Of a stretch of DNA of 41,479 bases, positions 6,610 through 30,243 are shown in pieces. Under the pieces are notes generated by a model. It was given only the letters and a program-made list of their open reading frames with translations, did not search any database and was not told where the DNA came from. The translations under genes were made by a program, and so were the position numbers. Origin of the DNA: Acidimicrobiia bacterium (lineage in GTDB: Bacteria; Actinomycetota; Acidimicrobiia; Spongiisociales; SHLN01); the NCBI GenBank assembly GCA_041619515.1, contig JBFKDW010000019.1, positions 1 to 41,479 on the forward strand. Reading direction: 5' to 3'. Numbering within the stretch: position 1 is the first letter of the stretch; each line of letters opens with the position of its first letter.

Positions 6610-6636
6610 CGGGCGCAGAAGAAAGCTGTGTTCCGG

Positions 6637-6718
6637 TGGTGGGAGGAGGATTTGAACCTCCGAAGGCTGTGCCGGCAGATTTACAGTCTGCTCCCTTTGA
6701 CCGCTCGGGCATCCCACC
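6637..6718 (-). tRNA. tRNA-Tyr (GTA); 3' CCA not fully encoded (ACCG)
   Basis: GGTGGGATGCCCGAGCGGTCAAAGGGAGCAGACTGTAAATCTGCCGGCACAGCCTTCGGAGGTTCAAATCCTCCTCCCACCA: acceptor stem GGTGGGA/TCCCACC, anticodon loop CTGTAAA, long variable arm, T-loop GTTCAAATC. Confidence 0.97.
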
Positions 6719-6839: not shown

Positions 6840-7718
6840 CTACGAGCTGAGCGGGCTCGCCATCTGCTCGAGACGGGCGACGCGATCGGGAATCGGCGGA
6901 TGGGTCGAGAACAGCTTGCGCAACGTCCCGCCGCCATCGCGTCGGCCACCGAAGGCTTTGAGGGGGTCGGCGATGTACAGCGGCGCCACCGCCGGGTTCA
7001 CGTTCATCGGAATTCGGGAGGTTCCGGCCTCGAGCTTTCGCAGCGCACTGGCCAGAGCCATCGGCTGGCCGGTTATGTCGGCGCCGGTCCGGTCCGCTTG
7101 ATATTCGCGCGCACGGGTGATGGCGAGCTTGATGATCATCGCCGCCAGGGGGGCGAGGATGATGCTCACCAGAGCAATGATCCCTCCCAGGGGGTTGTTG
7201 TCGTTGCGGCGTCCGCCGAGGGCTCCCCACATCGCCATGCGGGCGAAGATGGAGAGGGCGGCGGCCATCGTGGCGGCGATGGTCCCGATCAGGATGTCGC
7301 GATTGCGCACGTGGGCCAGCTCGTGGGCGAGCACGCCTTCGAGCTCCTCGTTCGTCATGAGCTGGAGGATTCCCCCGGTCACCGCCACTGCGGCATGCCT
7401 GGGGCTGCGCCCGGTCGCAAAGGCGTTCGGCTGGGGCGAATCGATGTAGTAGAGCTTGGGCATCGGCATGTTCTCCATCTGCGCCAGCTTCGATACGATC
7501 GAGGTCACCTGCGGCAGCTGTCCCTCTTCGATCGGGCGGGCATTCGATGCCCGCAGCGCCAGCTTGTCGGAGAAGAAGTACATGCCGAAGTTGAGCACTG
7601 CGGCGATGCCGAGGGCGATGATTGCCCCGCCGGTTCCGCCCAACGTCTGGCCGACCAGCACGATGACGGCGCCGAGGGCGGCGAGTAGCCCAACGGTCTT
7701 CAGGTTGTTGTTGATCAT
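6840..7718 (-). CDS. htpX: Zinc metalloprotease HtpX (M48)
   Basis: QPNAFATGRSP, AHELAHVRNRD (HExxH), RAREYQAD and FSTHPP. Start placed at MINNNLKT. Confidence 0.95.
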   Translation of the reverse strand: MINNNLKTVGLLAALGAVIVLVGQTLGGTGGAIIALGIAAVLNFGMYFFSDKLALRASNARPIEEGQLPQVTSIVSKLAQMENMPMPKLYYIDSPQPNAFATGRSPRHAAVAVTGGILQLMTNEELEGVLAHELAHVRNRDILIGTIAATMAAALSIFARMAMWGALGGRRNDNNPLGGIIALVSIILAPLAAMIIKLAITRAREYQADRTGADITGQPMALASALRKLEAGTSRIPMNVNPAVAPLYIADPLKAFGGRRDGGGTLRKLFSTHPPIPDRVARLEQMASPLSS

Positions 7719-7753
7719 GGTGTGAATGCTACCTCTGGGTCTGAACATCTACT

Positions 7754-9611: not shown

Positions 9612-10676
9612 TCACAGGCGGGCCACGAGCGCCCGGAAGTCTCCGAGCCCGCGCGGGTTGACGAGTGCCTCCGCGTCCGTGCGATCGGAGCGCACCTGGA
9701 GGCGGCCGAGCTCGTCACCCGACCTGGCGAACTCCAGTTCCGTCTGTCGGAGCCGGCCGATCAACTCCCGCAAGCCGAGGCCCGCCAGGAAATCGTCCTG
9801 CCGATGCAGCTCGACCTCGGCGCCCGCCAGCTCTGCCACCGCCGCCAGGGCGGTGAAGTTGACGTCGGCCGTGATGTCGGTTTCCCCGGGGGCATGGAGG
9901 GGATGGGGGCCGAGGTGATGGGATCGATAGGTACGAAGCGTGCCCGTGACCCGGCGCTGCTCCAACTCCTCGGCGGTGGCTCCGTAGTCGATGACGAGCA
10001 ACGCACCCGCCTCCAAGGCGCCGAGCACCCGACGAACCCAATCAGCGGCTTCGAGCTGTACCTCGACGATGCCTCCTTCGCCGACTGGGCCCGAATAGGC
10101 ATCTGCCCACTCGGCAACCTCCGGCCGGGCCGGAGCCTCGACCAGCTCGAGCGCCTCTCCGACATGTGCGACATGATGTTCGGCCCACCCCTCTCCGCGA
10201 CGCACTGCGATCGCCATCGGAAGGTTGTCGAGCAACTCGTTGGCAACCACCACCCCCCTCCCGACCGCCCCGGAGACGTCGCCCACGACCCGGTCGGCCG
10301 GTAGCAATTCCCGCAGAGCCGCCCGGGCGGCAGGTGACACTTCGACGGCCCACGCCTCCACCGACACCTCGTCGAGCACTGCAGCCAGCAGAGAGCCGGA
10401 TCCCGCCCCGACATCCACCAACCGGAACGGTTCGCCGATCCGGGCCCGTTCGGATTCGACAAACCGGGCGATCGTGGATCCAAACAGCCGGCTCACCTCC
10501 GGGCTGGTGAGGAAGTCACCCCCCTTGACCGAGCGCAGCACCCCCCCGGCAAAGAACCCGCCGGGCTCGTAGAGGGCAGCGGCCATGAACTCGTCGAAGG
10601 GAAGCGGACCGCGAGCATCGATGGCCGCTTTCAACCGCCTTTCCACGGCGTTCGGCTCCCTGCCGGCGGCCGTCAT
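9612..10676 (-). CDS. SAM-dependent arginine methyltransferase, MidA/NDUFAF7 family (complex I assembly)
   Basis: GPLPFDEFMAAALY, GDFLTSPEVS, DVGAGSG, ANELLDNLP, IDYG and PGETDITADVNF. Confidence 0.9.
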   Translation of the reverse strand: MTAAGREPNAVERRLKAAIDARGPLPFDEFMAAALYEPGGFFAGGVLRSVKGGDFLTSPEVSRLFGSTIARFVESERARIGEPFRLVDVGAGSGSLLAAVLDEVSVEAWAVEVSPAARAALRELLPADRVVGDVSGAVGRGVVVANELLDNLPMAIAVRRGEGWAEHHVAHVGEALELVEAPARPEVAEWADAYSGPVGEGGIVEVQLEAADWVRRVLGALEAGALLVIDYGATAEELEQRRVTGTLRTYRSHHLGPHPLHAPGETDITADVNFTALAAVAELAGAEVELHRQDDFLAGLGLRELIGRLRQTELEFARSGDELGRLQVRSDRTDAEALVNPRGLGDFRALVARL

Positions 10677-10739
10677 CGAGGAGAACCCCACGAGGTGGCC
10701 CGGCGATCCACCCCATGCGCCGGGTGTGCCTGCGCCGTC

Positions 10740-12221
10740 TCAGCCTCCAGCCAAAGCGCTGGCCGCCTTGGCGAACTGGCCGATGGCTTCGGGATACACG
10801 CCCACGACGATGACGCCGACGGCCAGCATGCCGAAGGCGAGTGCCAGCGAGGGCGCTACCCCCGCCGGGGCAGGCTCCGGCGCCACGTGCTCGGGAGCGG
10901 GATCCATCCACACCGTCTGGACCACCCTGGCGTAGTAGTAGAGCGCGATCACCGCATTGACGGCAGCGATGGCCGCCAGCGCCACCGTCCAGCCGTTGGC
11001 GTTCTGCAGCACCGCGAGGAACATCACGAACTTGGCATACCAGCCCGCCAGCGGTGGAATCCCCGCCAGCGAGAAGAAGAAGATGGTCAGCAGGATGCCG
11101 AGGCCCGGCGCGTATGACCCGAGCCCGGCCCAGTCCCGCACCCGGCCGCTGCCCGTGCGGCGGGCGGCGGCGATGACGACCGCGAACGCCCCCAGGTTCA
11201 TGATCCCGTAGATGAGGACGTAGCTGACCGTGGCTTCGAAGGCCAGATTCAGGCTGTCGCCCTCGATGAGCCCGGCGGCCGCGAACGGAACCAGCATGAA
11301 TCCGGCGTGGGCGATGGACGAGTAGGCGAGCAGGCGAACGACGTTCTCCTGCCGGAGGGCCACCAGGTTGCCGACGGTCATCGACAGCGCGGCGAGGATC
11401 CACAGCGCCGGTCCCCAGATATCCGGGGCGCCCGCAAACGCCACGTAGGACACGAGCAGGATGCCGACGAACCCGGCCGCCTTCGAACCGACCGACAGGT
11501 AGGCGGTCACCGGGGTGGGAGCACCCTCGTAGGTATCCGGTGCCCAGAAGTGGAAGGGAACCGCCGACACCTTGAACCCGAAGCCGACCAGCACCAGCAG
11601 GATCCCCAGCACGAACACCGGCTCCTCGGCAACCGAGGCGGAGGCGGCCTTGATTCCCTCGAACGACAGCGAGCCGGTCATCCCGTATACGAGCGACATG
11701 CCGTAGAGGAGGATTGCCGCCGACAGGACGCCGATGATGAAGAACTTGAGGGCGACCTCGTTGGAACGGGTGTCGCCCTTCCGCCAGCCGGCCAGCAAGA
11801 ACGCGGGCCCGGACACCAGCTCGAGGGCGACGAACAGCGTGACGAGGTCGCGGCTCGATGCCATCACCATCCCCCCCAGCAGGGAAGCCAGGACCAGGAA
11901 GTAATACTCGCCCTGGTAGTACCGGTCACCCTCGACGTATGCGACCGACATCAGCAGCACGACGTAGCCGGTGAGGATGAAGAACACTTTGAGCACGAGA
12001 GCGAAATCGTCCACCACATACGATCCGTCCATCATCGATCGCACCGCGTCGTCACCCGCCGCCAATGTGAAGATCGGGACCAGGGCGAGAGTGAGGCCGA
12101 CGATCCCGACCACCGCCGAGAGCCACTTGCGCTCCTGGGGAAGGAACAGATCGGCCCCCAGCACTGCCAGCACGGTGCCGGCCACGATGAAATCGGGAGC
12201 GAGGGCGTGGTAGTCGAACAC
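10740..12221 (-). CDS. nuoN: Complex I-like subunit N (operon 2)
   Basis: EVALKFF, GFKVSAVPFHFWAPDTYEGAP, RLLAYSSIAHAG and SLAGIPP. Confidence 0.95.
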   Translation of the reverse strand: MFDYHALAPDFIVAGTVLAVLGADLFLPQERKWLSAVVGIVGLTLALVPIFTLAAGDDAVRSMMDGSYVVDDFALVLKVFFILTGYVVLLMSVAYVEGDRYYQGEYYFLVLASLLGGMVMASSRDLVTLFVALELVSGPAFLLAGWRKGDTRSNEVALKFFIIGVLSAAILLYGMSLVYGMTGSLSFEGIKAASASVAEEPVFVLGILLVLVGFGFKVSAVPFHFWAPDTYEGAPTPVTAYLSVGSKAAGFVGILLVSYVAFAGAPDIWGPALWILAALSMTVGNLVALRQENVVRLLAYSSIAHAGFMLVPFAAAGLIEGDSLNLAFEATVSYVLIYGIMNLGAFAVVIAAARRTGSGRVRDWAGLGSYAPGLGILLTIFFFSLAGIPPLAGWYAKFVMFLAVLQNANGWTVALAAIAAVNAVIALYYYARVVQTVWMDPAPEHVAPEPAPAGVAPSLALAFGMLAVGVIVVGVYPEAIGQFAKAASALAGG

Positions 12222-13781
12222 TCAGAAGGCCTTGTCGATGAGGGCCGTCACCGCGTCGTTGGCGGCCCCGGTGATGATCTTGGGGTAGACACCGATGGCA
12301 ACGATGGAGATCAGCAGCGGGACCCAGGCGGCGTACTCGTAGCGGTCGACGTCGTGGAATTCGTGTCCGGCCCATTCCTCCTTGGGCTCACCGAGGTTCA
12401 CCTTCTGCAGCATCCACAGCAGATAGCCGGCGGTGAGCACGGTACCGACCGCCCCGATCACCATGGCAGTGCGGAACACGCTCACGCTGAGCCCCTCCAG
12501 CGGCTGATAGCTGCCGAGCAGCGCCATGAACTCGCCCCAGAAGCCGGCCAGCCCGGGCAGACCGAGCGAGGCCATGGCGGTGAACCCCAGCATGCCGCCC
12601 AGGATGGGCATCAACTTGAGATTGCCTCCCAGCCGGGCCATTTCGCGCGTGTGGTACCGGTGCTGCATCGATCCCGCAAGGAAGAACAACATGCCGGTGA
12701 TGACACCGTGCGCCACCATGCCGATGACGGCCGCCGTGATCCCGACCGGGGTGAGGGTGGCGATGCCCAGCATCACGAAGCCCATGTGGCCGACCGACGA
12801 GAAGGCGATCAGCCGCTTCATGTCGGTCTGGGCCAGGCAGGCCAGGGAACCGTAGATGATGGCGATGACGGCGAGGATGGCGATGGCAGGGGCCCAGCTC
12901 TTGGCCTCGTCGGGCAGGATCGGGATGGCGATGCGGATGAAGCCGTAGGAGCCGAGCTTCAGGAGGATGGCAGCCAGCAGCACCGACCCGACGGTGGGGG
13001 CGGCGGTGTGAGCGTCGGGGAGCCAGGTGTGAAACGGCCACATCGGCACCTTGACGGCAAAGCCGAGGAAGAGGGCTCCGAACACGAGGAAGGCGAACGT
13101 CCCGTCGAATTGGCCGGCCGCCCCCATCTCGGCCAGCTCGGGGATCGAGAACGATCCCCCGCGGAAGTTGAGCGCCAGAAACCCGAGCAGCATGAACGCC
13201 GAGCCGAAGAGTGTGAACAGGAAGAACTTGATCGAGGCGTAGAGCCGGGTCTCGACTTCCTTGCTGAAGCCGGGGAGCCTGATCTTGGTCTTGTCGCCCC
13301 AGATCCCGATCATGAAGTACATGGGGAGCAGCACGAGCTCGAAGAAGATGAAGAACAGGACCAGGTCCTGGGCCACAAACGTGCCCGCCATGCCCGTGGC
13401 GAGAAAGAGGATGAGGATGAGGAAGCCCTTCGGATTGTGGGGCTCGGGCCAGTGGTCCCATGAGTACACGATCGACAGCACAACGATGGCGGCCGACAAG
13501 ACCAGCAGCGGGAGGCTGATGCCGTCGATGCCGATCTCGTAGTCGGAGCCGATGGCCGGTATCCAGCTCAGCTTGGCGCCGAGCTGGAGGGACCCCGCCT
13601 CGGCATAATCGAACCGAAACGCAGCCACCACGGCGAAGAACAGCGATACGGCGGCGGTGACGAGCGCCAGGAGCTTGGCGGTCTCTTCGTCCTTCTTGGG
13701 CACGGCAAGCAGCGCAACGGCGCCGACCAGCGGTGCAAAGACCACCAGGCTGAGGCCCCAGCCGTTATCGAACCACTCCAT
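12222..13781 (-). CDS. nuoM: Complex I-like subunit M (operon 2)
   Basis: GIDGISLPL, FFELVLLPM, VKVPMWPFHTWLPDAHTAAP, LLKLGSYG and GFWGEF. Confidence 0.95.
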   Translation of the reverse strand: MEWFDNGWGLSLVVFAPLVGAVALLAVPKKDEETAKLLALVTAAVSLFFAVVAAFRFDYAEAGSLQLGAKLSWIPAIGSDYEIGIDGISLPLLVLSAAIVVLSIVYSWDHWPEPHNPKGFLILILFLATGMAGTFVAQDLVLFFIFFELVLLPMYFMIGIWGDKTKIRLPGFSKEVETRLYASIKFFLFTLFGSAFMLLGFLALNFRGGSFSIPELAEMGAAGQFDGTFAFLVFGALFLGFAVKVPMWPFHTWLPDAHTAAPTVGSVLLAAILLKLGSYGFIRIAIPILPDEAKSWAPAIAILAVIAIIYGSLACLAQTDMKRLIAFSSVGHMGFVMLGIATLTPVGITAAVIGMVAHGVITGMLFFLAGSMQHRYHTREMARLGGNLKLMPILGGMLGFTAMASLGLPGLAGFWGEFMALLGSYQPLEGLSVSVFRTAMVIGAVGTVLTAGYLLWMLQKVNLGEPKEEWAGHEFHDVDRYEYAAWVPLLISIVAIGVYPKIITGAANDAVTALIDKAF

Positions 13782-13793
13782 ACCGCTCTCCTC

Positions 13794-15839
13794 CTATGTG
13801 ATGCTGATCCAAAAACCGATAACGAGGACGATCGACGCGCCGAAAAGCGCTGCCGCGTACTGCTGGACCTTGCCGGTCTGGATGTACCGCAGCTTGCCTC
13901 CCAGGAAGCCGGTACCGGCGCCCGCCTCGTTGATCGCCAGGTCGATGCCACGCTGATCCAGTCCCCCATACACGAATCGACCAAACCCCCGTGTGAGCGC
14001 GCCGACGGCGTTGACGATCAGGTCGATGATGTTTCCGTTCGTCCAGTTGACGAAGCGGGCGATGGGCCCCTTGATGGGGTTGACGATGCCGTTCATGTAC
14101 AGGTCGTCGATGTAGTACTTGTTCTCGAGTACCGGCCACAGCCCTGGGATACGCAGGCGGTCGCGCTCGTGCTGGGTGGAGGCATCCTCGTAGTAGAGCC
14201 GGTATCCGACCGCGATACCCAGCACACCGGCCGCCAAGCCAAGCCCGAGCGCGGTGAGGTCGAAGCTGGTGGCGTGCTCACCAAGCAACTCGGCTGACAC
14301 GAGCCGGGTGACGACCAGCTTGTAGAAGGCGTCGGTGATTCCCGGCACGTTGAGGAAGCCGGCCACCGCTGCCGCCCCGGCCAGGCCGAGCATGGGGACG
14401 GTCATGATGGCGGGCGATTCGTGAGGGTGGCCATCGCCCTTGTACGTGCCGAAGAAGGTGAGCGACACGGCCCGCGTCATATAGAGGGCGGTGATGAAAG
14501 CGGTGCCGACACCCAGCGCCAGCACCACGCCGTGGCCGCCCTCGTTGAAGGCAGCCAGGATCTCGTCCTTCGAGAAGAAGCCGGCCAGCGGAGGAAGCCC
14601 GGCGAGGGCGGCCGAGCCGATGATGAACGTCCAGAAGGTGCGGGGCATGTCTTTGCGGAGCCCGCCCATGTCGGACATGTTGTTGGAATGGACCGCATGA
14701 ATGACCGAGCCGGCACCCAGGAAGAGCAGGCTCTTGAAGAAGGCGTGGGTGAAGAGGTGGAAGAGCCCGGCGGTGTAGGCGCCCGCCCCGAGCGCAGCCA
14801 CCATGTAGCCGAGCTGGCTGAGCGTCGAATAGGCGAGGACTCGCTTGATGTCGTCCTGGACGATGGCGAGCAACCCTGCGATCACGAGCGTGATGGCGCC
14901 GATGATCAGCACGAGGTCGAGCGCCTCGTGTGCCATCTCCTCGAACAGCGGGAACATGCGTGCGGTCAGATACACGCCGGCCGTGACCATGGTGGCCGCG
15001 TGCATGAGGGCCGACACCGGGGTGGGCCCGGCCATGGCATCGGGCAACCACACGTGGAAGGGAAACTGGGCGCTCTTGCCCATCGCTCCGATGAACAACA
15101 GCACCGCGATGACCACAGCCACGTCATCCAGCGCGGCGTCGGTCTCGACGACTTTTTTCATGATGGTCGAGATCGTGAACGACCCGACGGTGATGGCGGC
15201 GATGATGATGCCGATCATGAGGCCGATGTCGGCGATCTTGTTGACGAGAAACGCCTTCATGCCCGCCGACGAGTTCTCCTTCTGTTCCCAGTAGTGGCCG
15301 ATCAGCAGGTACGAAGAAACCCCGACGAGCTCCCAGCCGATGAGCAGCTGGATGAGGTTGGCGGCCGACACCAGCATGAGCATGGCGCCGGCGAACAGGG
15401 TGAAGCTGGCGAAGAAGGCCGTCGGCCGCACGTCACCTTCCATATAGCCGACTGCGTAGACGAAACAGGCGGTGGAGACGACGCCGACGACGAAGAACAT
15501 CATGATCGAGAGGCCATCGACCACCCAGGCCCACTCGATCTCGAACCCGCCGAAGGCCCCGATGGTGACCCCACCCTCGTACACGATGCCGTCACCGAAC
15601 CACGTTGCCAGGAGAAGCACGGTGCCGTAGACGGCGACGAAGGCGACCGCACCGACGGCCAGCTCGCCTCCGTTTCTGGGCAGGCGCTTTCCGAAGAGGG
15701 TGATAGCGAGGGTAGCCAGGAACGGCACCAGCACGATGAGCCAGGCGCCGGCCGCCAGGATCCCGCCGTCGCTTCGCTCGACCGCCTCGCCGGTGGCAGC
15801 GAGGATCGAGGAACCGGACAGCACGGCCGCCGTCACCAT
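13794..15839 (-). CDS. nuoL: Complex I-like subunit L (operon 2)
   Basis: [43 protein letters not shown] and the C-terminal QTGKVQQY. Start placed at ATG 15839. Confidence 0.95.
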
Positions 15840-16138
15840 TTCAGCGCATCCAGCTCGTCGATATTGGCCGAGGCCCGGTTGCGGAAGATGAGCAGGACGA
15901 TGGCAAGCCCGATCCCCACTTCGGCGGCGGCCACAGTGATGATGAACAGCGCGAACACCTGGCCACCGGCAGCCGTGTCCTCGAGGAAACGGCAGAAGGC
16001 AACGAAGTTGATGTTGACGGCGGCCAGCATCAGCTCGACCGACAACAGGACCAGCACCGCGTTGCGGCGAATGAGCACCCCGTAGATGCCGATGGAGAAC
16101 ATCGCTGCCGACAACACGAGGAATTGGGCGATCGTCAT
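15833..16138 (-). CDS. nuoK: Complex I-like subunit K (operon 2)
   Basis: RRNAV...SVELML...[11 protein letters not shown]. Confidence 0.95.
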
Positions 16139-16644
16139 GACTCGGGGTCCTTGCGCGCCAGGACGATGCCGCCGATGAGCGCTGCCAGCAGAACGAACGA
16201 GACCACCTCGAACGGCACGACGAAGCGGTCGAAGATGGTGGTTCCGATCTCCGAGGTGCGGACGGTGTCCAGCCCGCCGATCTTCTCATCGCCGAAGAAG
16301 GCGACCGCAGAGCCGGCGAGAACCGCGAAGGTGGCCACCGCAATGAATGCCGGCGGCCACCGATTGGCGTGGTCTAGCGAGCGCGACCGCCCGATCTCGA
16401 CCCGCGTGATCATCACTCCGAACAGGAACAGCACGATGACGGCCCCGATGTAGACCAGGACCAGCACGCCGGCCACGAACTCGGCGCCGAGCAGGATGAA
16501 CAGGCCGGCCGAGCCGGCGAGGGCGGCCACCAGCATGAGAGCGGCGTGCATGACGTTACGGCTGGTGACCACTACCAGCGAGGCCGCCACCATCACCAGG
16601 GAGATGACGAGGAAGAACCAGTTCTGGGCGAGACCGAGATCCAT
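16135..16644 (-). CDS. nuoJ: Complex I-like subunit J (operon 2)
   Basis: AEFVAG...[12 protein letters not shown]...[17 protein letters not shown]. Confidence 0.93.
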
Positions 16645-17108
16645 CAGGGCTCCAGTGGCGGCGGGTCGGGAACGGTTGCCAGCCAATCGGTGAGCCGGTC
16701 CTTGTCATGCAACATGGCCGAGATCTTCGTTTCCGAATACTCGTACTCGGGGCTCCAGAACAGGGCGTCGAACGGGCATACCTCGACGCAGATGCCGCAG
16801 TACATGCATAGGGCGTAGTCGATGTCGAAGCGGTCGAGCGTGGCGCGGGTGCGTACCCGCCCGCCTTCCTTGGCCGGAGGCTGTTCTTCCTTGTGGCCTT
16901 CGATGTAGATGCACCAGTCGGGGCATTCCCGGGCACACAGCATGCACACGGTGCAGGCTTCGGGGTCGAGGGCGATGACCCCGCGTGCCCGGGGGACGGG
17001 GATCTCCTTTTCCTTGGGGTACATCACCGTCGGGGGCTTCTCGAACAGGGTCTTCAGCGTCAGCCCCATTCCCCGGAAGAGCCCCAGCCCGCGGCCTCGA
17101 GCGTTCAC
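16644..17108 (-). CDS. nuoI: Complex I-like subunit I (two [4Fe-4S] clusters; operon 2)
   Basis: [12 protein letters not shown] and [12 protein letters not shown]. Confidence 0.95.
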
Positions 17109-18107
17109 TTAGAACACCACCTTGAAGATTGCCGTCACGCCGATGTTGGCGAGAGCGAGCGGAACCAGCCACTTCCAGGCCATCGTCTGGAGCTGATCCT
17201 CCCGTAGGCGGGGCCAGGTCCAGCGAATCCAGATCATGAGGAAGGCGAGCAAGCCGACCTTGGCCATCAGCACGAAGGGCCCGAAGAACGTCGGGTCGAG
17301 GCCCCAGAATCCGTAGCCGCCCAGGAAGAGAGTGGAGGCTATCGCCGACATGGCGAACATCCCTGCGTACTCGGCCAGGAAGAAGGTTGTGAACCGGAAC
17401 CCCGAGTACTCGGTGAGATAGCCCATGACCAGCTCGGATTCGGCGATCGGGAGGTCGAACGGCGTTCGGTTGAGCTCGGCCAGGCTGGCGACGAAGAAGA
17501 TCACGAACCCGATGACCTGGCCGCCCACCAGGTAGGGCACGCCCATCTCGATCTGGGCCTCGACGATTCCCACCATGGACAGCGTTCCCGCCTGGATGAC
17601 CACTCCGAGCACGGCGAGCACGAGCGGAAGCTCATAGGCGATGATCTGGGCAGCCGCCCGCAGCCCGCCGATGAGCGAGTACTTGTTGCCGGAGGACCAG
17701 CCGGCCATCAGCACGCCGAGCGTCGAAAGAGATGAGATGGCGAGCGCGAAGAAGATGCCGAGGTCGAGGTCGGCGGCGATGAGGTCGGGGCTGAACGGGA
17801 TGATCACGAACACGGCGAGGGTCGCGACCATGAGCAGGTAGGGGGCCAGCTTGTAGACCTGCCGATCGGCGGCGGCGGGCACGAGATCCTCTTTTTGGAA
17901 GAACTTGAGGCCGTCGGCGAGCGGCTGCGCCCAGCCCCACCGTCCCCCGGCGAAATACGGCCCGACCCTGCTCTGCATGTGGGCCGAGATCTTCAGCTCC
18001 CCGAAGATGATGGGAAGGATCGCGGTCAAGACCAGGCCGGTGATTGCGAGAACCTTGAGGGTCAGCAGGACATAGAAGTTGATTTCGATGGCGACAAGCG
18101 AGATCAC
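17109..18107 (-). CDS. nuoH: Complex I-like subunit H (operon 2)
   Basis: QSRVGP, QPLADGLKFFQKE and AELNRTPFDLPIAESELV. Confidence 0.95.
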   Translation of the reverse strand: MISLVAIEINFYVLLTLKVLAITGLVLTAILPIIFGELKISAHMQSRVGPYFAGGRWGWAQPLADGLKFFQKEDLVPAAADRQVYKLAPYLLMVATLAVFVIIPFSPDLIAADLDLGIFFALAISSLSTLGVLMAGWSSGNKYSLIGGLRAAAQIIAYELPLVLAVLGVVIQAGTLSMVGIVEAQIEMGVPYLVGGQVIGFVIFFVASLAELNRTPFDLPIAESELVMGYLTEYSGFRFTTFFLAEYAGMFAMSAIASTLFLGGYGFWGLDPTFFGPFVLMAKVGLLAFLMIWIRWTWPRLREDQLQTMAWKWLVPLALANIGVTAIFKVVF

Positions 18108-18198
18108 GTCGTGACCTCCAGACCGCCGCCCCCGATCCGCAGCTCCTTATCCACGAGGGCTCCGGCCGGGTGCCGGCGCAGGCGGGCGGGGGGCCGTG

Positions 18199-19392
18199 TC
18201 ATCGGTCGACATCTCCCAGGACGAAGTCGAGGCTGCCGAGCAGGGCAATGATGTCGGGCACGATGAGACCTTTGAGAGCCCAGGGCAGGATCGACAGGTT
18301 CGAGAAGGAGGCGGTGCGGATCTTGAGACGGTACGGAATGCGCCCGCCCTCGGATACGAGGTAGAACCCCATCTCGCCTTTCGGATTCTCGGCCCGGACG
18401 TAGGTCTCGCCCTTCGGAACCTTGATCACGCGGGGCACCTTGGCCTGGAGTGGGCCCGAAGGCATGTCGTCGATTGCCTGGTTGACGATGCGCGCCGCCT
18501 GCCGGACTTCCTCGACCCTCACCATGTAGCGGTCGAAGCAGTCACCGTTGTCGCCGACCGGAATGTCGAAGTCGTACTTGCGGTAGGGCAGATAGTCCTC
18601 GTGCTTGCGCAAGTCGAACGGAACGCCGGAGGCACGCAGGTTGGGCCCCGACACGCCATAGGCGAGGGCCTTGTCGGCCGGGAGCACCGCCACCCCTCTG
18701 GTGCGGGCCTGGAAGATCTCGTTTCCCGAGACCAGGGTGTCCATGTCGTCGCACACTGCCAGCACGTTCTCCATTGCGGCCCGGGTCCCGGCCAGGAAGT
18801 CCTTGGGCAGGTCCTGCGAAACCTTCTTCTGAGTGGTTCCTCCCCCGGCGGCCGGCTTGACCCCCCCGATGCGGTTGAAATTGGGGTGGAAACGCCCACC
18901 CGTCACCCCTTCGATGAGCTCGAGCACGTGTTCGCGCTCCCGGAGCGCGTGCATGAGGGGCGTGGCCGCACCCAGCTCGAGTGGATATGAGGACATGAAC
19001 ACCAGGTGGCTGGCTATGCGGGCGAGCTCGGTGAGGATGAGCCGGATGGATTGGGCTCGGTCGGGGACCTCTATCTCCATCAGCCGCTCCACTGCCACCA
19101 TCAGGGGGATCTCGTTGGCAAATCCCGACACCCAGTCGATCCGGTTGACGAGGGCGGTGATCTGCGGGTAGGTGCGCACCTCCGACAGCTTCTCGTAGCC
19201 GCGGTGCATGTACCCGATGACGGGCTCCACGTGGATGATGCGCTCGCCGTCCAGCTCTGCCACCAGCCGGAGAACCCCGTGCGTCGACGGGTGCTGCGGC
19301 CCGATGTTGAGCGTCATACCCGGCGTTTGCAGCTCGACGGAAACTGCTACCTCCGAGACGTGGGCGGCGGCGCGTGGATCGAGAGTCGTCAT
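18199..19392 (-). CDS. nuoD: Complex I-like subunit D (operon 2)
   Basis: NIGPQHPSTHGVLRL, GYMHRGYEK, ENPKGEMG and the C-terminal GDVDR. No NiFe CxxC motifs. Confidence 0.95.
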   Translation of the reverse strand: MTTLDPRAAAHVSEVAVSVELQTPGMTLNIGPQHPSTHGVLRLVAELDGERIIHVEPVIGYMHRGYEKLSEVRTYPQITALVNRIDWVSGFANEIPLMVAVERLMEIEVPDRAQSIRLILTELARIASHLVFMSSYPLELGAATPLMHALREREHVLELIEGVTGGRFHPNFNRIGGVKPAAGGGTTQKKVSQDLPKDFLAGTRAAMENVLAVCDDMDTLVSGNEIFQARTRGVAVLPADKALAYGVSGPNLRASGVPFDLRKHEDYLPYRKYDFDIPVGDNGDCFDRYMVRVEEVRQAARIVNQAIDDMPSGPLQAKVPRVIKVPKGETYVRAENPKGEMGFYLVSEGGRIPYRLKIRTASFSNLSILPWALKGLIVPDIIALLGSLDFVLGDVDR

Positions 19393-20117
19393 CCGGTGCC
19401 GCTTTCCGACCCGTCGTCTCCCGGTGACTCGTCCCCGGGCGGAGCCTCGGCTTCGGTGTTTTCCTCCGACGGCATGCCTTCGACGTCGACCATTCCCGGC
19501 CAGGGTTTGACCTCTCGCGCCAGCAGCGGGTAGCTCTTCCGGAGCGGGTGCCCCTCGAACTCGTCGGTGAGGTAGAGGTTCGTCAGGTTGGGATGGCCCT
19601 CGAAGTCGATGCCGAACATCTCGGCGGCCTCTCGCTCATGCCAGTCCGCCCCGCCGAACACTCCGATCAACGTGGGAAGCCGGGCATCGTCTTTCGGGAC
19701 GTCGGTCGACAGGGTGACCGCATCGTTGGTGCGAGCGCTCGAGAGCCGCACCAGCACCTCGTATCGCTCTTCGACCGGTTCCTCCAAGGGCTCTCCGACG
19801 GCGACGTCGTTGCTCCAATCCACCGCCGACAGAAACGAGAAGAAGTCGAGCCCGGCTCCGTCGCGCACCGCCCGCACCGCCTCGACCCATCCGTCGCGAT
19901 CGACCAGCACCTTGGCGTTGCCGTAATCCGCCGACCACGCATCGCTGCCGACCAGCCCCGCCACCCGCGCTGCCAGGGCGGCGACCACCTCATTGGAGGC
20001 AGGCTCTTCTGTCGAGTCGGCGCCCGTCGGCTCGGCTTCGGGCGCGGTGTCCTCGGGCGCGCCGCCCTCGGGCGCGGTGTCCTCAGGCGGGGTGTCCTCA
20101 GGCGGGCTGGTGGTCAC
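19389..20117 (-). CDS. nuoC: Complex I-like subunit C (operon 2) with acidic low-complexity termini
   Basis: [20 protein letters not shown]...[10 protein letters not shown]. Confidence 0.93.
20041..20106. repeat. In-frame 15-bp tandem repeat (~4.4 copies) encoding [10 protein letters not shown] at the NuoC2 N-terminus
   Basis: GGCGCGGTGTCCTCG / GGCGCGCCGCCCTCG / GGCGCGGTGTCCTCA / GGCGGGGTGTCCTCA. Confidence 0.85.
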
Positions 20118-20595
20118 GCTGGTTCCACTTCTCGCGAACGTCCTCGTTGGTGATCTTCTCCTGAAGGAGGACGATGCCCTCCATCAGTGCCTCAGGCCGG
20201 GGTGGGCAGCCGGGGACGTATACGTCCACCGGAATGATCTGATCGACGCCCTTGGTCACCGAGTACGAGTCCCAGTACGGGCCCCCGCAGTTGGAGCACG
20301 AGCCCATCGAAATCACGTACTTCGGGTTGGGCATTTGATCGTAGAGTCGGCGGATGGCGGGAGACATCTTGTCCGTCACCGTCCCGGCGACGACCATGAG
20401 GTCTGCCTGCCGGGGAGACGCCGGCAGCGGGATGATGCCGAATCGCATGAAGTCGTAGCGGGGACCGGAGGCGGCCATCATCTCGATGGCACAGCAGGCG
20501 AGGCCGAACTGAAAGAACCACAGCGAGTACTTCCGCGACCAGTTGAGCAGCCAGGAAATGGGCTTTGGTGCACCAAACCGCTCGATTACTCCCAC
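20098..20595 (-). CDS. nuoB: Complex I-like subunit B (operon 2)
   Basis: [25 protein letters not shown] and PGCPPRPE. The GTG start overlaps the nuoA stop. Confidence 0.95.
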
Positions 20596-20951
20596 TTGAG
20601 GACTCCCTTGCGCACCGTGTAGAGCAAGCCCATGAGCAGAATGCCGATGAAGATGAACATCTCCCAAAGGCCGAACGCGCCGAGCGATTCGATCTCGAGG
20701 GCCCAGGGAAAGATGAAGACGGCCTCCACGTCGAAGATGAGGAACAGGAGGGCGAAGACGTAGTAGCGAATATGCGTCTGGCTGTATCCCCCGCCGATTG
20801 GGTCGATGCCGGATTCGTAGGATTCCAGCTTGGCCGGTGTGGGGTTGCTCGGCCGTATCAGCGCGGCGACACCCAGTAATAGTCCGACCAGAACGGCTCC
20901 GAAAGCGCCGAAGGCGAGGACGGTCAGGTATTGGTCAAAGTACTCCGACAA
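20586..20951 (-). CDS. nuoA: Complex I-like subunit A (operon 2)
   Basis: YESGIDP...[22 protein letters not shown]...KGVLKWE. RBS GAGGAG lies 5 nt before TTG 20951. Confidence 0.93.
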
Positions 20952-25045: not shown

Positions 25046-26500
25046 CTAGAGGGGCAGGGCGCTGGTGACGACATCGAGGAGCGGCCCGGGAGCGATTCCG
25101 AACGCCAGGGTGACGACTGCTACGCCGGTGAGTGCCAGTCGCATCGGGTCGCCTACCCGGATGCTGCCGGTCGCAACTGCCGTCCCCTCAGCGGCCGGAG
25201 TCATGTACATGAGCACGATCACGCGCAGATAGAAGAAGAGGCCGGCCACCGACGCCACCGCCCCGAGGATCACCAGCCACAGATAGCCGGCCTCAACGGC
25301 CTCGCGGAACACATACAGCTTGGAGAGGAAGCCGGCGGTGAGCGGGATCCCCGCCATGGAAAGCATGAGCAACGCCAGCGAACCGGCCAGAACCGGGGCT
25401 CGCTGCGCCAGGCCGGCATAGTCCGTGAGAGCCGACTTGGTGCCGGACGGGCCCGAGACCACCGCCACCACCGCAAACGCCCCGAGCACCTGAAACGCGT
25501 AGGTGACGACGTAGAACCAGATGTAGGGAACCCCGTCGATCCCCGCCACGAGACCGGTGAGGATGAACCCGGCGTGTGCGATCGAGGAGTAGGCGAGCAT
25601 GCGTTTGATGTCGGACTGGGCGATCGCCAGCATCGTGCCCACGATCACAGAGATGGCGGCGATGACACCCACCGCCGGTGCCCAATCGCTGATGTAGGGC
25701 CCGTAGCTGGTGACGGTGATGCGGGCGAGGGCGGCGAAGCCGGCAACTTTGGCACCGGCGGTCATGAATCCGCTCACCCCGCTGGCAGCGCCCTGGTACA
25801 CGTCGGGAGCCCACATGTGAAATGGGGCGGCACTCACCTTGAAGGCGAGCCCCACGATGAGCAGCCCCACCCCGGCGAGCAATGCCGCCGAGTCGAGCAG
25901 CAGGTTCTCCGACAGGAAGTCGGCGGCACCGTAGAGCGACAGCGACCCGGTGGCGGCGTAGCTGAGCGCAACCCCGTACAGGAACACGGCCGAGGCGAAT
26001 GATCCCAGCAGGAAATACTTGATCGAGGCCTCGTTGGCTTCGGCGCTGTCTCGGCTGAAGCCGGCAAGCACGTACAGGCTGATCGAAGCTACCTCCAGGG
26101 CCAGGAACAGCATGATGAAGTGAGCCGACGCCGCCATCAGGATCATGCCGGTAACGGACAGCAGGATGAGGGCGATGAACTCGGCGGCCCGCCGGCCCTG
26201 TTGGAGCACGAGCGGCCATGCGACAAGCAGTGCCACGCCTCCCAACACTGCCAGCACGACAGCTCCGAAGGCGGCGAAGGGATCGAGCACCAGCATGCCC
26301 CGGAAGTAGATGGCCGGGTCATCCGAAGCCCGCACCCACTGGGAGACACTCAGGACGAAGCCGGCTGCCAGGCTCACCCCGGCGATCCCTCCCAACCAGA
26401 TGACGGGAGGCTTGTAGGTGACCTCGACGAGCAGCACGGCCACCACCCCGAGCGTGAGAGCGATGACGGGAGCAATTGCGAGATAGGAGATCTCGGTCAC
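25046..26500 (-). CDS. nuoN: NADH-quinone oxidoreductase subunit N (operon 1)
   Basis: EASIKYF, FKVSAAPFHMWAPDVYQG and KRMLAYSSIAHAG. GTG start at 26500. Confidence 0.95.
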   Translation of the reverse strand: MTEISYLAIAPVIALTLGVVAVLLVEVTYKPPVIWLGGIAGVSLAAGFVLSVSQWVRASDDPAIYFRGMLVLDPFAAFGAVVLAVLGGVALLVAWPLVLQQGRRAAEFIALILLSVTGMILMAASAHFIMLFLALEVASISLYVLAGFSRDSAEANEASIKYFLLGSFASAVFLYGVALSYAATGSLSLYGAADFLSENLLLDSAALLAGVGLLIVGLAFKVSAAPFHMWAPDVYQGAASGVSGFMTAGAKVAGFAALARITVTSYGPYISDWAPAVGVIAAISVIVGTMLAIAQSDIKRMLAYSSIAHAGFILTGLVAGIDGVPYIWFYVVTYAFQVLGAFAVVAVVSGPSGTKSALTDYAGLAQRAPVLAGSLALLMLSMAGIPLTAGFLSKLYVFREAVEAGYLWLVILGAVASVAGLFFYLRVIVLMYMTPAAEGTAVATGSIRVGDPMRLALTGVAVVTLAFGIAPGPLLDVVTSALPL

Positions 26501-28032
26501 CTGCTCACCTCCTCCGCAATGTCGTCGATGCGAAGCGGAGACTCGAACCCGGTTTGATCCTCGATGCGGTCGAGCACCCGCTCCACCGCCGGCTCGATCC
26601 GGTCGAGCACCGGCTTCGGATACACGCCGAGCAGGACGATGAGCGCGGCGATCGGCACGAGAATCCCGACTTCCCGCAGCCCGATGTCGGACAGGGCCCG
26701 GTTTTCCTCCTTGTCCGGCTCGCCGGTGAACACCCGCTCGTAGGCCCACAGCAGGTAGACCGCCGCCAGCAGCACCCCGACCGCGGCGATAACCGTCAGG
26801 GCAGGGTGGCGGCTGTAGGAGCCGAGCAGGATGAGGAACTCACCGACGAATCCGTTGAGGCCGGGCAGCCCGATGGAGGCGAACGCCGTGAACAGGAAGA
26901 ACCCGGCAAACCACGGCATCACCTTTTGCAGCCCGCCGTAGGCAGCGATGTCACGAGTATGGCGCCGCTCGTAGATCATCCCCACCAGCAGGAAGAGCGC
27001 CCCGGTGGTGAGGCCGTGGTTGACCATCTGGATGACGCCGCCCGACACGCCCTGGGAAGTGAGCGCGAAGATACCCAGAATGACGAAGCCGAGGTGGCTG
27101 ACCGACGAGTAGGCCACCAGCCGCTTCAAATCCGGCTGGACGATGGCGACCGCGGCGCCGTAGATGATGCCGACCACGGCCAGCGCGGCCAGAAAGCCGG
27201 CCAGCTGGACGGTGGCCTCGGGGAACAGGTTGAGGTTGAAGCGCAAGAAGCCGTACGTCCCCATCTTCAGCAGCACACCGGCCAGAATGACGGAGCCGGC
27301 GGTGGGTGCTTCGGTATGTGCGTCGGGCAGCCAGGTATGGAACGGGAACAGCGGGACCTTGATCGCGAAGGCAATCCCGAATGCGCCGAACAGCCAGTAC
27401 TGGGCGGTCCGGGAGATGTCGAGCTCGAGCAGCTCGATGTAGTTGAAGGACGGCCCGCCGAGCTGGTCACTGGCCTGGGCCGACAGGAAGATGATGCCGA
27501 CCAGGAGGAAGGCGGAACCGAGGGCGGTGTAGAGGAAGAACTTGAGCGCCGCCGCCAGCCGGCGCTCACCCCCCCACAACCCGATGAGGAAGTACATCGG
27601 GACGAGCAGCACTTCGAAGAACACGAAGAACAGAACCAGGTCGAGCGCCAGGAACACCCCGATGAGGGCACCCTCCAGCAAGAGGAGTGCGGCCATGAAC
27701 TCCTTGCGACGGTGCTCGATGTTGACCGATGCCAGTATCCCGAGCGGGAACAAGAAGGCCGTCAAGGCGACGAGAAACACGCTTATGCCGTCGACGCCGA
27801 GGTGGTAGTCGATCCCGAGATCAGCCCAGATGGGCGACTTCTCGACGAACTGGAACCCGGCGTTGGACGTCTCGAAGTCGAACACGAGAAACCCCGCCAG
27901 GCCGAGGGTGAACAAGCTGAGGGCGAAGGCGACCGGCACCAACAGCTCCGGCCGGCGACGGGGCAGCCCGATCACGACTGCGGCCGCCGCCACCGGTAGC
28001 CAGATGAGGAGGGAGAGCACGTTGAGGCTCAT
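26497..28032 (-). CDS. nuoM: NADH-quinone oxidoreductase subunit M (operon 1)
   Basis: GVDGIS, FFEVLLVPM and IKVPLFPFHTWLPDAHTEAP. Confidence 0.95.
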   Translation of the reverse strand: MSLNVLSLLIWLPVAAAAVVIGLPRRRPELLVPVAFALSLFTLGLAGFLVFDFETSNAGFQFVEKSPIWADLGIDYHLGVDGISVFLVALTAFLFPLGILASVNIEHRRKEFMAALLLLEGALIGVFLALDLVLFFVFFEVLLVPMYFLIGLWGGERRLAAALKFFLYTALGSAFLLVGIIFLSAQASDQLGGPSFNYIELLELDISRTAQYWLFGAFGIAFAIKVPLFPFHTWLPDAHTEAPTAGSVILAGVLLKMGTYGFLRFNLNLFPEATVQLAGFLAALAVVGIIYGAAVAIVQPDLKRLVAYSSVSHLGFVILGIFALTSQGVSGGVIQMVNHGLTTGALFLLVGMIYERRHTRDIAAYGGLQKVMPWFAGFFLFTAFASIGLPGLNGFVGEFLILLGSYSRHPALTVIAAVGVLLAAVYLLWAYERVFTGEPDKEENRALSDIGLREVGILVPIAALIVLLGVYPKPVLDRIEPAVERVLDRIEDQTGFESPLRIDDIAEEVSR

Positions 28033-29927
28033 CAGCCCGCCCCCCGCGATACGAACCAGACGAGCAGCGCCACCACCCCTGCGAAGGTGACGGCGGCATA
28101 ACTTCGGACGAAGCCGGTCTGAATGGGCCGGAGCCAGCCGCTGACGCGGCGCACTCCCCCACCGATGGCACGCACCGACCCGTCGATGACCTCGCTGTCG
28201 AGGACGAACGCCGTCCAGGCCGCCACCAGTTTGGAAGGGAGCACCAGCAGATTGCCGATGATGTCGTCGACGTAGTAGCCGTTGCCGACCCAGCGCCATA
28301 CTCCCGTCCGGCGCGCCGCCAGCGGCGCCGCATCGAAAGCGTCGGCTCCCCGGTAGCGGCCGAACGCGAAGAGGGCGCCGGCGGCGGCGGCCACGATCGA
28401 CACCGCGGCCAGCACCCAGGGTGTGGCCCCGGATGGGAGGTGCGCCATCTCGATGGCTTCGAAGGACGGCTCCAGGTAGTGCTCGAAAGCCGGCTTGAAC
28501 GGCCACGGCGTGTTCAGCAGGCCGAGAACCGCGCTGCCCACTCCCAACCCCAGCAGCGGCAGTGTCATGATCGCCGGTGACTCGTGCGGGTGGACACCGT
28601 CGGCCCAGCGAGGCTCGCCCCAGAACGTGAGATACATCCAGCGGGTCATGTACACCGCGGTCACGAGGGCGGTGATGATCCCGATCACCCATAGGAACGT
28701 GTACCAGCCGCCGGCTCCGAACGCGAGGGCGAGGATCTCGTCTTTCGACCAGAAGCCGGCCAGCGGCGGGATCCCGATGATGGCCAGCCAGCCCACAACC
28801 ATCGTCAGATGGGTGACGGGCATGAGCTTGCGGAGCCCGCCCATCTTGGCCATGTCCTGCTCGCCGTCGAGGGCGTGAATGACCGATCCCGAGCCGAGGA
28901 ACAACAGCGCTTTGAAGAAGGCGTGTGTGAACAGGTGGAAGATGCCCGCCACATAAGCGCCGGTCCCGACTGCAAGGAACATATAGCCGAGCTGGCTGAT
29001 CGTGGAGTAGGCCAGCACCCGCTTGATGTCTCGCTGCATGAGGGCGATGGTGGCGGCAAACAGCGCGGTGAAGGCGCCGACGGTGGCGACCGTGCCCGCC
29101 GAGAATCCAGACAGCTCGAAGAGGGAGGCGGCGCGGGCCACCATATACACACCGGCGGTGACCATGGTGGCGGCGTGGATGAGCGCCGAGACCGGCGTCG
29201 GACCCTCCATGGCGTCGGGTAGCCAGAAGTAAAGGGGGATCTGGGCAGACTTGCCGGCCGCCCCCAGCAGCAGGAGCAGGGTGATGGCGGTAGCCGTGCC
29301 TGCGGTTATCACCCGCGCCGGCTCCTCGAGGACGGTGCCGTAGGTGAGCGTATTGAAATGTGCGAGAATCAGCATCAGCCCGACGAGGAAGCCCACGTCA
29401 CCGACGCGGTTGACGATGAACGCCTTCTTGCCGGCAGCGGCCGCCGACGGCTTCTGGAACCAGAACGAGATGAGCAGGTAGGAGCTGAGGCCGACCAGCT
29501 CCCAGCCGACGAAGAGCAGGCCGAAGTTGTCGGCCAGCACCAGGATCAGCATCGAGGCGGCGAAGAAGTTGAGGTTGGTGAAGAACCGGCCGTAGCGGGG
29601 GTCACCGTGCATGTAGCCGATGCTGTAGAGATGGATCAGCGACCCAACGCCGGTCACGGTGAGCGTCATGATCGCCGACAGCGGGTCCCACAGCAGCTGG
29701 GCGTTGGCACCCAGCGCCGGGATCCAATCGAAGAGGTGCACGGTCTCGGCTTCGCCGGTGCCGGTGATGAAGTCGCCGGTGGCGATGAGCGCATACACGA
29801 ACCCGAGACCGATGGTGGCACTGGCGACCACCCCCGGGACTGGCTCAGGCAGGCGGGAGCCGAAGAAGTGGAGGAACACGGCCCCGGCGAGCGGGAGAGC
29901 TATGACGATCCAGATGTAGTCGACCAC
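28032..29927 (-). CDS. nuoL: NADH-quinone oxidoreductase subunit L (operon 1)
   Basis: [37 protein letters not shown] and QTGFVRSY. Confidence 0.96.
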   Translation of the reverse strand: MVDYIWIVIALPLAGAVFLHFFGSRLPEPVPGVVASATIGLGFVYALIATGDFITGTGEAETVHLFDWIPALGANAQLLWDPLSAIMTLTVTGVGSLIHLYSIGYMHGDPRYGRFFTNLNFFAASMLILVLADNFGLLFVGWELVGLSSYLLISFWFQKPSAAAAGKKAFIVNRVGDVGFLVGLMLILAHFNTLTYGTVLEEPARVITAGTATAITLLLLLGAAGKSAQIPLYFWLPDAMEGPTPVSALIHAATMVTAGVYMVARAASLFELSGFSAGTVATVGAFTALFAATIALMQRDIKRVLAYSTISQLGYMFLAVGTGAYVAGIFHLFTHAFFKALLFLGSGSVIHALDGEQDMAKMGGLRKLMPVTHLTMVVGWLAIIGIPPLAGFWSKDEILALAFGAGGWYTFLWVIGIITALVTAVYMTRWMYLTFWGEPRWADGVHPHESPAIMTLPLLGLGVGSAVLGLLNTPWPFKPAFEHYLEPSFEAIEMAHLPSGATPWVLAAVSIVAAAAGALFAFGRYRGADAFDAAPLAARRTGVWRWVGNGYYVDDIIGNLLVLPSKLVAAWTAFVLDSEVIDGSVRAIGGGVRRVSGWLRPIQTGFVRSYAAVTFAGVVALLVWFVSRGAG

Positions 29928-29930
29928 TCG

Positions 29931-30236
29931 CTATCCCTTCAGCAGCACGAGGTCGTCGACCGAGGCGCTGGCGCGGCGACGGAAGACGGCGATCATGATG
30001 GCAAGACCCACGACAACCTCGGCGGCGGCCACCACCATGACGAAGAACACCGCCACCTGCCCGTTGAGGTCGCCGACATGGCGGCCGATCGCTACGAAGG
30101 TGAGGTTGACGGCGTTGAGCATGAGCTCGATGGACATGAACATCACGAGGGCGTTGCGCCGCAGCAGCATGCCCCCGGCTCCGATGACGAACAGCACCGC
30201 TCCCAGCGCCAGATACCAGCCGGCGGTTACGTCCAT
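29931..30236 (-). CDS. nuoK: NADH-quinone oxidoreductase subunit K (operon 1)
   Basis: [16 protein letters not shown]...[11 protein letters not shown]. Confidence 0.95.
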
Positions 30237-30243
30237 GCGGCCC

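Follow-up and report, generated by a model that had tools for sequence, protein, structure and literature searches.

The question raised by this locus is which substrate is served by a methyltransferase gene that stands at the end of one of two nuo operons. The window, that is, the whole stretch of 41,479 nucleotides analysed here (contig JBFKDW010000019.1 of assembly GCA_041619515.1, from an Acidimicrobiia bacterium), carries two operons for complex I, nuo1 and nuo2, and all complex I-related genes in it are on the minus strand. The gene in question, midA, follows nuoN2, the last gene of the second operon, and encodes an S-adenosylmethionine (SAM)-dependent methyltransferase of the MidA/NDUFAF7 family. 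MidA likely dimethylates Arg64 of NuoD2, the 49-kDa subunit, during assembly of the 11-subunit complex encoded by nuo2. This assignment builds on the family and fold of MidA, the equivalence of the target residue, a one-way dependence of midA on Arg-type NuoD, and the linkage of midA to nuoD2, all of which are observed. The strongest evidence is that, where nuoD2 lies outside its operon, midA stands next to nuoD2 and not next to nuoN2.

The methyltransferase and its predicted target

The open reading frame (ORF) at 9612-10691 on the minus strand matches the Pfam family PF02636 (Methyltransf_28) with an E value of 2.7e-40 and a score of 138.8 bits, versus a curated cut-off of 23.3. By PF02636 search it is the single copy in its own assembly (95.65% complete), and its nearest homologues are mostly labelled as Acidimicrobiia metagenome-assembled genomes. 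A structure model and a profile of MidA were built on 58 actinobacterial homologues. The predicted model (mean predicted local distance difference test score of 96) has the seven-β-strand methyltransferase fold including the MidA-specific insertions, as judged with Foldseek. The top six Foldseek hits, with template modelling (TM) scores of 0.77-0.85, were all of the MidA family (Burkholderia COG1565, Dictyostelium MidA and Rhodopseudomonas DUF185), and the next methyltransferase family came at 0.34. For Dictyostelium MidA (5zu0/5ztz) the TM score of the predicted model was 0.81-0.82 at 22% identity, and the 58-homologue profile aligned with this protein over the full length (E 2.3e-52).

The SAM-binding motif I (D/E-x-G-x-G-x-G) is intact as Asp93-Val-Gly-Ala-Gly-Ser-Gly99, and is followed by the acidic Glu117; both align to the Dictyostelium motif. 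Across the 58 homologues there is little or no variation in motif I, Glu117, Glu152, Asp155, Asp235-Tyr236, Asp272, and Thr274. The candidate catalytic acids Glu152, Asp155, Asp235, and Asp272 are invariant and are also present in 5ztz. There is no clear sign of a recent horizontal arrival of midA: its guanine-plus-cytosine (GC) content is 0.69 versus 0.665 for the genome, its third-position GC (GC3) is 0.80 versus 0.85-0.89, and a FastTree tree of MidA sequences groups by family. This grouping fits shared descent, without proving co-evolution.

The second operon has the order nuoA2, B2, C2, D2, H2, I2, J2, K2, L2, M2, N2 (about 20951-10740, minus strand). Judged by Pfam matches and translation, it contains the eleven core genes of an 11-subunit complex I and lacks nuoE, nuoF, and nuoG. 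The features of this operon and of midA, all on the minus strand, are as follows.

9612..10691, minus strand: midA, MidA/NDUFAF7-family SAM-dependent methyltransferase (PF02636, fold model, motifs; start GTG 10691 or ATG 10676)
10677..10739, minus strand: GC-rich spacer between nuoN2 and midA, 63 bp counted to the ATG
10740..12221, minus strand: nuoN2 (PF00361)
12222..13781, minus strand: nuoM2 (PF00361, PF01059)
13794..15836, minus strand: nuoL2, start approximate (PF00361, PF00662)
15833..16138, minus strand: nuoK2 (translation and tblastn versus relatives)
16135..16644, minus strand: nuoJ2 (PF00499)
16644..17108, minus strand: nuoI2, start approximate, with two CxxCxxCxxxCP motifs (translation)
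17109..18107, minus strand: nuoH2 (PF00146)
18199..19392, minus strand: nuoD2, Arg-type 49-kDa subunit, the putative substrate (PF00346; NF004739 above cut-off)
19201..19203, minus strand: codon CGC of NuoD2 Arg64, equivalent to bovine NDUFS2 Arg85, Yarrowia Arg121, and Paracoccus Arg65
19132..19134, minus strand: codon of NuoD2 Trp87, which replaces the quinone-site Tyr87 of Thermus Nqo4
19389..20117, minus strand: nuoC2 (PF00329)
20098..20589, minus strand: nuoB2 (PF01058), with the codon of Thr70 at 20380-20382 in the switch position described below (compare Yarrowia NDUFS7 Thr122)
20586..20951, minus strand: nuoA2, start approximate (PF00507)

A preliminary description of this DNA had placed the methyltransferase about 60 bp after nuoN2 in the same direction. 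This holds: nuoN2, on the same strand, ends with its stop at 10740, and the gap to midA is 63 bp when counted to the ATG (10676) and 48 bp when counted to the GTG (10691). A scan of the spacer gave no promoter-like or terminator-like site. Hairpins are possible in it, but they are not kept in relatives, and a conserved element in the spacer was rejected. In two relatives nuoN2 and midA overlap by 8 bp, which fits a single transcript.

The own assembly contains two NuoD genes only. It had been claimed that NuoD2 is the one of them that bears the arginine, and the codons agree: NuoD2 reads GYMHRGYEK (Arg codon CGC), whereas NuoD1 reads GYLHTGMEK (Thr codon ACC). In alignments with PDB sequences, Arg64 of NuoD2 corresponds to bovine Arg85, Yarrowia Arg121, Paracoccus Arg65, and Thermus Thr64. 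This means that the substrate arginine of the family is present in the 49-kDa/NuoD subunit of the same cell. The proposed family assignment and the proposed equivalence of the target residue are thus confirmed by the PF02636 match, the fold, and the PDB alignments. Passages of PMC3750175 report symmetric dimethylation of this arginine in bovine, human, Pichia, and Paracoccus (Arg65) enzymes, none in E. coli, and a threonine in Thermus. Arg64 is invariant in all 45 aligned sequences. NuoD2 is without hydrogenase-type NiFe-binding cysteine pairs (a distinction between NuoD and hydrogenases taken from passages of PMC3144371): it has no CxxC at either end, and its C-terminus reads DVDR.

The canonical quinone-site tyrosine of NuoD is replaced in NuoD2. 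Trp87 occupies the position of Thermus Tyr87 in 41 of the 45 aligned sequences, whether or not the lineage has midA; it is a variant feature of the paralogue and has no bearing on the family to which midA belongs. Since Trp87 makes the quinone site unlike the mitochondrial one, the benefit of methylation may differ as well. In NuoB2, the stretch that reads F-R-x-S-P-R in others reads P-L-P-A-S-P-R, so that the arginine hydroxylated in mammalian PSST is lacking.

Distribution of midA and NuoD types

A phylum sample of 221 genomes with a completeness of at least 90% was searched for PF02636 and for the NuoD motif. The table was compiled by hand and ten genomes were rechecked by family search; a missing motif match does not prove that NuoD is absent. 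midA was found in 73 of the 221 genomes. Arg-type NuoD is present in 72 of these 73 (71 from the table and G089, in which the motif was seen separately): 59 hold both the Thr-type and the Arg-type, and 13 showed the Arg-type motif only. Among Thr-only genomes, midA occurs in 1 of 25. It was found in none of the 40 genomes without a NuoD motif match, and in none of the 13 whose sole Arg motif belongs to families in which the two clusters that were fetched look Ech/Mbh-like. Three genomes were set aside, two with a second NuoD cut by a contig end and one with an undisplayed match; all three are without midA. The dependence of midA on Arg-type NuoD is one-way, and the converse fails.

As controls, PF02636 gave a match in Caulobacter, Synechococcus, and Haloferax and none in E. 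coli, Thermus, and Deinococcus, though these last three have NuoD. Five genomes had appeared to be Thr-only with midA; four of them had a second, Arg-type NuoD that the pattern missed, and the fifth (G136) stays. A rule by which midA would require an Arg-Gly motif was rejected: Arg-Gly-Phe NuoD2 occurs without midA in families f24, f61, f58, f42, f20, and f46, and 11 genomes have an Arg-Ala NuoD2 adjoining midA.

Gene order of midA and nuoD2

In the 73 genomes with midA, the distance from midA to the Arg motif is below 10 kb in 35 and 10-31 kb in 3; in 2 more the motif is distant but still on the contig of midA, in 32 it is on another contig, and no Arg motif was found in 1. None of the 73 has midA within 10 kb of the Thr motif. 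The nuoN2-midA layout accounts for 9 of the 35 close genomes, the own genome included (three were fetched as examples). In the remaining 26, which come from nine families, the two genes are closer than the nuoD2-nuoN2 span or differently oriented. Seventeen of these were fetched: in sixteen, nuoD2 is the sole nuo gene of the stretch, and one has nuoC-nuoD on a 4-kb contig. Relative to nuoD2, midA is tail-to-tail in 12, head-to-head in 1, and upstream in the same direction in 4. The nuo2 operon of G219 and G074 reads A-B-C-H, with no D, and that of G112 has no D after C in the stretch fetched. Five of the 26 genomes (7.5-9.2 Mb; three fetched at 73% GC) appear to be Streptomyces-like, and passages of PMC3765725 and PMC8388888 report an orphan nuoD2 in streptomycetes.

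In the intact operon nuoD2 and midA are about 8 kb apart, so that rejoining outside it needs separate breaks. The orphan NuoD2 sequences fall into three groups in a quick, unbootstrapped tree. These genomes strengthen the link between midA and NuoD2 beyond the evidence of the preliminary description.

Two genomes show further arrangements of nuoD2. G111 (locus L145, 7203-9417, and locus L221) has three NuoD genes: a Thr-type, an Arg-Ala type in a complete nuo2 operon, and an orphan of the Arg-Gly type that faces midA tail-to-tail. In its family, the 3 genomes with midA have an Arg-Gly-Tyr copy beside midA, and the 5 without midA have just Arg-Ala-Phe. G181 (L157, 8161-9222), a genome without midA, has a lone and very divergent nuoD2 (31% identity, branch 3.8), a possible case of decay following the loss of the second complex.

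The layout of the window recurs in its class. In a class sample of 71 genomes with a completeness of at least 95%, midA and the Arg motif are each present in 67, and the 3 genuinely Thr-only genomes are all without midA. Two apparent exceptions were set aside: in G309 (midA present, Arg motif unseen) the contig start cuts nuoD2 and midA follows nuoN2, and in G323 (Arg motif, no midA) a contig break cuts the operon after nuoH2. In 37 of 48 class genomes from outside the window's order, midA shares the strand of the Arg motif and lies 8.5-10.2 kb downstream of it, which is the length from nuoD2 to nuoN2. This class-wide recurrence makes the nuoN2-midA layout more than chance. The arrangement is looser inside the window's order. 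Among 28 close relatives with midA, viewed with 1.5-kb flanks, nuoN2 is directly upstream in 12, and about 1 kb lies between the genes in 2. Most genomes of the window's order hold both NuoD types.

It should be mentioned that the counts include unpublished genomes: G146, which is among the 26 and the 17 fetched and is included in both alignments; G061, G106, and G177 among the 73, G061 also being in the MidA alignment; and G028, one of the two cases with the spacer of about 1 kb. No conclusion rests on them.

Evaluation of the substrate assignment

Several observations weigh against the assignment of NuoD2 Arg64 as the substrate. midA is lacking in 68 of 140 Arg-type genomes, of which 37 hold both NuoD types. 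Seventy-seven midA-negative genomes were retested with the actinobacterial profile and all were negative (three positive controls gave E 1e-48 to 1e-68). In G136, at a completeness of 98%, midA occurs together with a NuoD of the Thr type only. In 34 of the 73 phylum genomes midA is unlinked, being far from nuoD or placed on a different contig. Of the 26 nuoD2 genes adjoining midA outside the operon layout, 11 read Arg-Ala instead of Arg-Gly, so that the mitochondrial substrate motif is not kept. In the window's order, htpX is a steadier neighbour of midA than nuoN2 (60 and 6 of the 80 closest loci, respectively). Finally, the sampled genomes are related, and the counts overstate independence; for this reason, and because a NuoD can escape the motif search, the Fisher value carries no weight. 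No divergent midA that had been missed turned up in the 77 retested genomes, ten of which gave just short, weak matches (E about 1e-4). Since about half of the Arg-type genomes are without midA, the modification would be helpful yet dispensable across the phylum, and midA is not universally needed for assembly.

The preliminary description had expected midA to go together with Arg-type nuoD across the phylum. From midA to NuoD this expectation stood, with 72 of 73 genomes versus 1 of 25 Thr-only genomes; from NuoD to midA it did not. The same description called the gene operon-encoded, which applies to much of the class and is overstated for most of the window's order and for the unlinked genes of the phylum.

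Loose linkage suggests another reading, namely that the gene order is a relic and that the enzyme acts on an unrelated substrate, a small molecule or another protein. The unlinked genes, the retention of midA in G136 without an Arg-type NuoD found, and the steadier htpX would be in line with it, as would the genes often lying between nuoN2 and midA in the window's order: a groEL-like ORF is present in 45 of the 80 loci, and nuoN2 was seen in 4 of the 41 with at least 9.9 kb upstream. Such a relic would not account for the reunion of two genes some 8 kb apart through separate breaks, with orphan NuoD2 in three groups of the tree, nor for the absence of midA from 24 of 25 Thr-only and 40 of 40 motif-less genomes. 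We consider this reading very unlikely.

The linkage, however, points to a partner and not to a residue. MidA might be a NuoD2-specific assembly chaperone that acts by binding, or that methylates another residue of the Q module, with Arg64 not, or no longer always, the acceptor. The Arg-Ala sequences adjoining midA would agree with this, as would the quinone site remodelled by Trp87 in 41 of 45 sequences and the divergence of the Streptomyces-like MidA homologues, which match PF02636 at E 1e-11 to 1e-19 and form a long branch in the tree. However, the SAM-binding and acidic active-site residues of MidA vary little or not at all in the 58 homologues, Arg64 is invariant in all 45 aligned sequences, and the known site of the family is the same arginine in mammals, yeasts, and Paracoccus. 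A chaperone of this kind thus seems unlikely, and methylation of Arg64 is the preferred reading.

The NuoB/NuoD switch and the first operon

The first complex is encoded by nuo1, which only a few unrelated genes separate from the second operon.

25046..39621, minus strand: nuo1, complete 14-gene nuoA-N operon (Pfam matches, all 14 subunits)
36811..38229, minus strand: nuoD1, Thr-type; Thr codon ACC at 37849-37851; quinone-site Tyr retained, codon at 37780-37782
38753..39217, minus strand: nuoB1; codon of Arg71 at 39005-39007, equivalent to Thermus Nqo6 Arg83, the compensating Arg

Passages of PMC8042128 describe an intersubunit switch: Thermus has Nqo4 Thr64 and Nqo6 Arg83, whereas Yarrowia has NDUFS2 Arg121 and NDUFS7 Thr122, and the two arginines occupy the same space in solved structures. 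In the window, Arg71 of NuoB1 aligns to Thermus Arg83, and NuoB2 has Thr70 at the equivalent position. Both states of the switch therefore coexist in the own genome, nuo1 being in the Thermus state and nuo2 in the Yarrowia state. Since NuoB1 carries the compensating arginine, complex 1 did not simply lose this residue but has it on the other subunit, and complex 1 is without the methylation target because its arginine sits on NuoB1. The fetched loci contain 38 neighbouring nuoB-nuoD pairs: 25 of these are Thr/Arg, 11 are Arg/Thr, and 2 are other/Arg, and no pair is Arg/Arg or Thr/Thr. In L209 (G089) and L237 (G151), the switch position of NuoB is Trp or Pro, beside an Arg-type NuoD.

These pairs bear on the suggestion, made in the preliminary description, that a methyl mark on NuoD2 stops the exchange of subunits between the paralogous complexes. 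It is true that 59 of the 73 midA genomes encode both NuoD types, and differential use of paralogous NuoL/M has been proposed for Streptomyces (passages of PMC3765725). Nevertheless, 37 genomes with both types lack midA, and in 13 midA genomes just the Arg-type motif was found. Hybrid complexes would clash or miss the arginine, methylated or not, and NuoD1 and NuoD2 are just 41% identical. The known Arg/Thr switch, which is independent of methylation, would better explain the separation of the paralogues. The suggestion is not supported, and such a sorting function seems highly improbable.

Proposed mechanism and its implications

With methylation of Arg64 as the preferred reading, the following course may be proposed. 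MidA would bind free NuoD2 before the latter docks on NuoB2. It would then transfer two methyl groups from SAM to Arg64, next to cluster N2, giving a symmetric dimethylation as in the mitochondrial enzyme and Paracoccus. The bulkier, less hydrogen-bonding Arg64 might pack against NuoB2 and cluster N2, so that the NuoB/NuoD interface around N2 would be more stable. Passages of PMC3829151 and PMC8042128 propose such packing for the mitochondrial enzyme, and tuning of the N2 potential is a suggestion found in parts of the same two papers. MidA would thus be an assembly aid for the second, 11-subunit complex alone.

It is also conceivable, though rather doubtful, that nuoD2 and midA form a separable catalytic cassette, in which the methylase licenses one NuoD for a complex without an NADH module and the choice of D subunit together with methylation sets the chemistry of N2 and the quinone site. 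This idea comes from the extra Arg-Gly NuoD of G111 tail-to-tail with midA and from the Streptomyces-like pair kept outside the operon.

midA belongs to a known enzyme family and represents no new kind of enzyme or system; the gene-order evidence for its substrate is good. The role of the methyl groups, as opposed to the arginine itself, in the assembly of complex I or in the N2 potential is named as open in passages of PMC8042128, and according to parts of the review PMC9006661 mice that lose NDUFAF7 die as embryos. If the assignment is true, Actinomycetota would provide natural pairs: within families f25 and f27, some genomes with Arg-type NuoD2 have midA and others lack it. The second complex of Streptomyces would be genetically tractable and probably dispensable, with complex 1 as an internal control, and the role of the methyl groups could be tested there. 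A family described as α-proteobacterial in origin would extend to a Gram-positive phylum, with the gene order naming the substrate.

Other features of the window and the own genome

Two features lie downstream of midA at the tail of the nuo2 region.

6840..7748, minus strand: htpX-like membrane protease (PF01435), tail neighbour of midA or nuoN2
6635..6718, minus strand: tRNA-Tyr(GTA), immediately downstream of htpX

The htpX-like protease forms a conserved tail of the nuo2 region, either after midA or shortly past nuoN2; in four midA-less genomes htpX lies at most about 2 kb after nuoN2. It may handle quality control of the membrane subunits. A short conserved domain downstream of midA (7916-8960, minus strand; label X8100) occurs in most of the 80 order-level loci and has no Pfam or NCBIfam match.

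Elsewhere in the own genome, a NuoF-like gene (44% identity) lies between two NuoG-like pieces (G000:C4, 58408-62159), and similar clusters are found upstream of midA in L063, L082, L084, L089, L090, and L094. This cluster might serve the 11-subunit complex as a module for electron input, or it might encode an enzyme of the formate dehydrogenase type. Between the two operons, at 21030-23649 on the plus strand, a 506-aa ORF overlaps a gene of the alkaline-phosphatase superfamily (PF01663). The ORF has no Pfam or NCBIfam match; by eye we take it to be ATP-grasp-like. At 213-5559 the window has an anti-sigma signalling cluster, with a HATPase-MetOD1 fusion, a PAS-GAF-SpoIIE phosphatase, an anti-sigma antagonist, and a SigF/B-type sigma factor.

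Comparison with known systems

Both the layout with two operons and the orphan nuoD2 have been published before. For the midA link this is not so as far as was found: no paper that connects midA with nuo genes in Actinomycetota came up in a search whose coverage left most subscription journals and supplements outside. The portions consulted of the main texts of PMC7771536 ("midA" 0 times), PMC3765725, and PMC8388888 name no MidA gene, passages of PMC12008989, PMC4453560, and PMC3144371 contain no midA-nuo link, and passages of the review PMC9006661 name no actinobacterial member and no nuo linkage. According to those review passages, the family is of α-proteobacterial origin, and the evidence for activity in bacteria is bioinformatic and structural only.

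Among the closest systems are human NDUFAF7 and Dictyostelium discoideum MidA (PDB 5ztz, 5zu0, and 5zzw), acting on NDUFS2 Arg85. The Pfam family, the fold, the motifs, and the arginine of the predicted substrate are the same. In contrast to these enzymes, the midA described here is from Actinomycetota, its gene is tied to the substrate gene, and its activity is predicted only; moreover, the NuoD predicted as its substrate is part of an 11-subunit complex that has Trp87 at the quinone site, and a second complex without the target is present in the same cell. The proteobacterial COG1565/DUF185 proteins (PDB 4f3n, 4g67, and 1zkd) are the best structural matches. Dimethyl-Arg65 of Paracoccus denitrificans Nqo4 (passages of PMC3750175) is a precedent for a bacterial NuoD dimethylated at the same arginine.

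Among Actinomycetota, Ca. Actinomarinales have a second nuo cluster of 11 genes according to passages of PMC7771536, and with it the same two-operon layout without nuoEFG. Streptomyces nuo2 with its orphan nuoD2 (parts of PMC3765725 and PMC8388888) has the same orphan nuoD2 as the Streptomyces-like genomes sampled here. The Arg/Thr switch is described between species only in the passages of PMC8042128, whereas here its two states are present in one cell.

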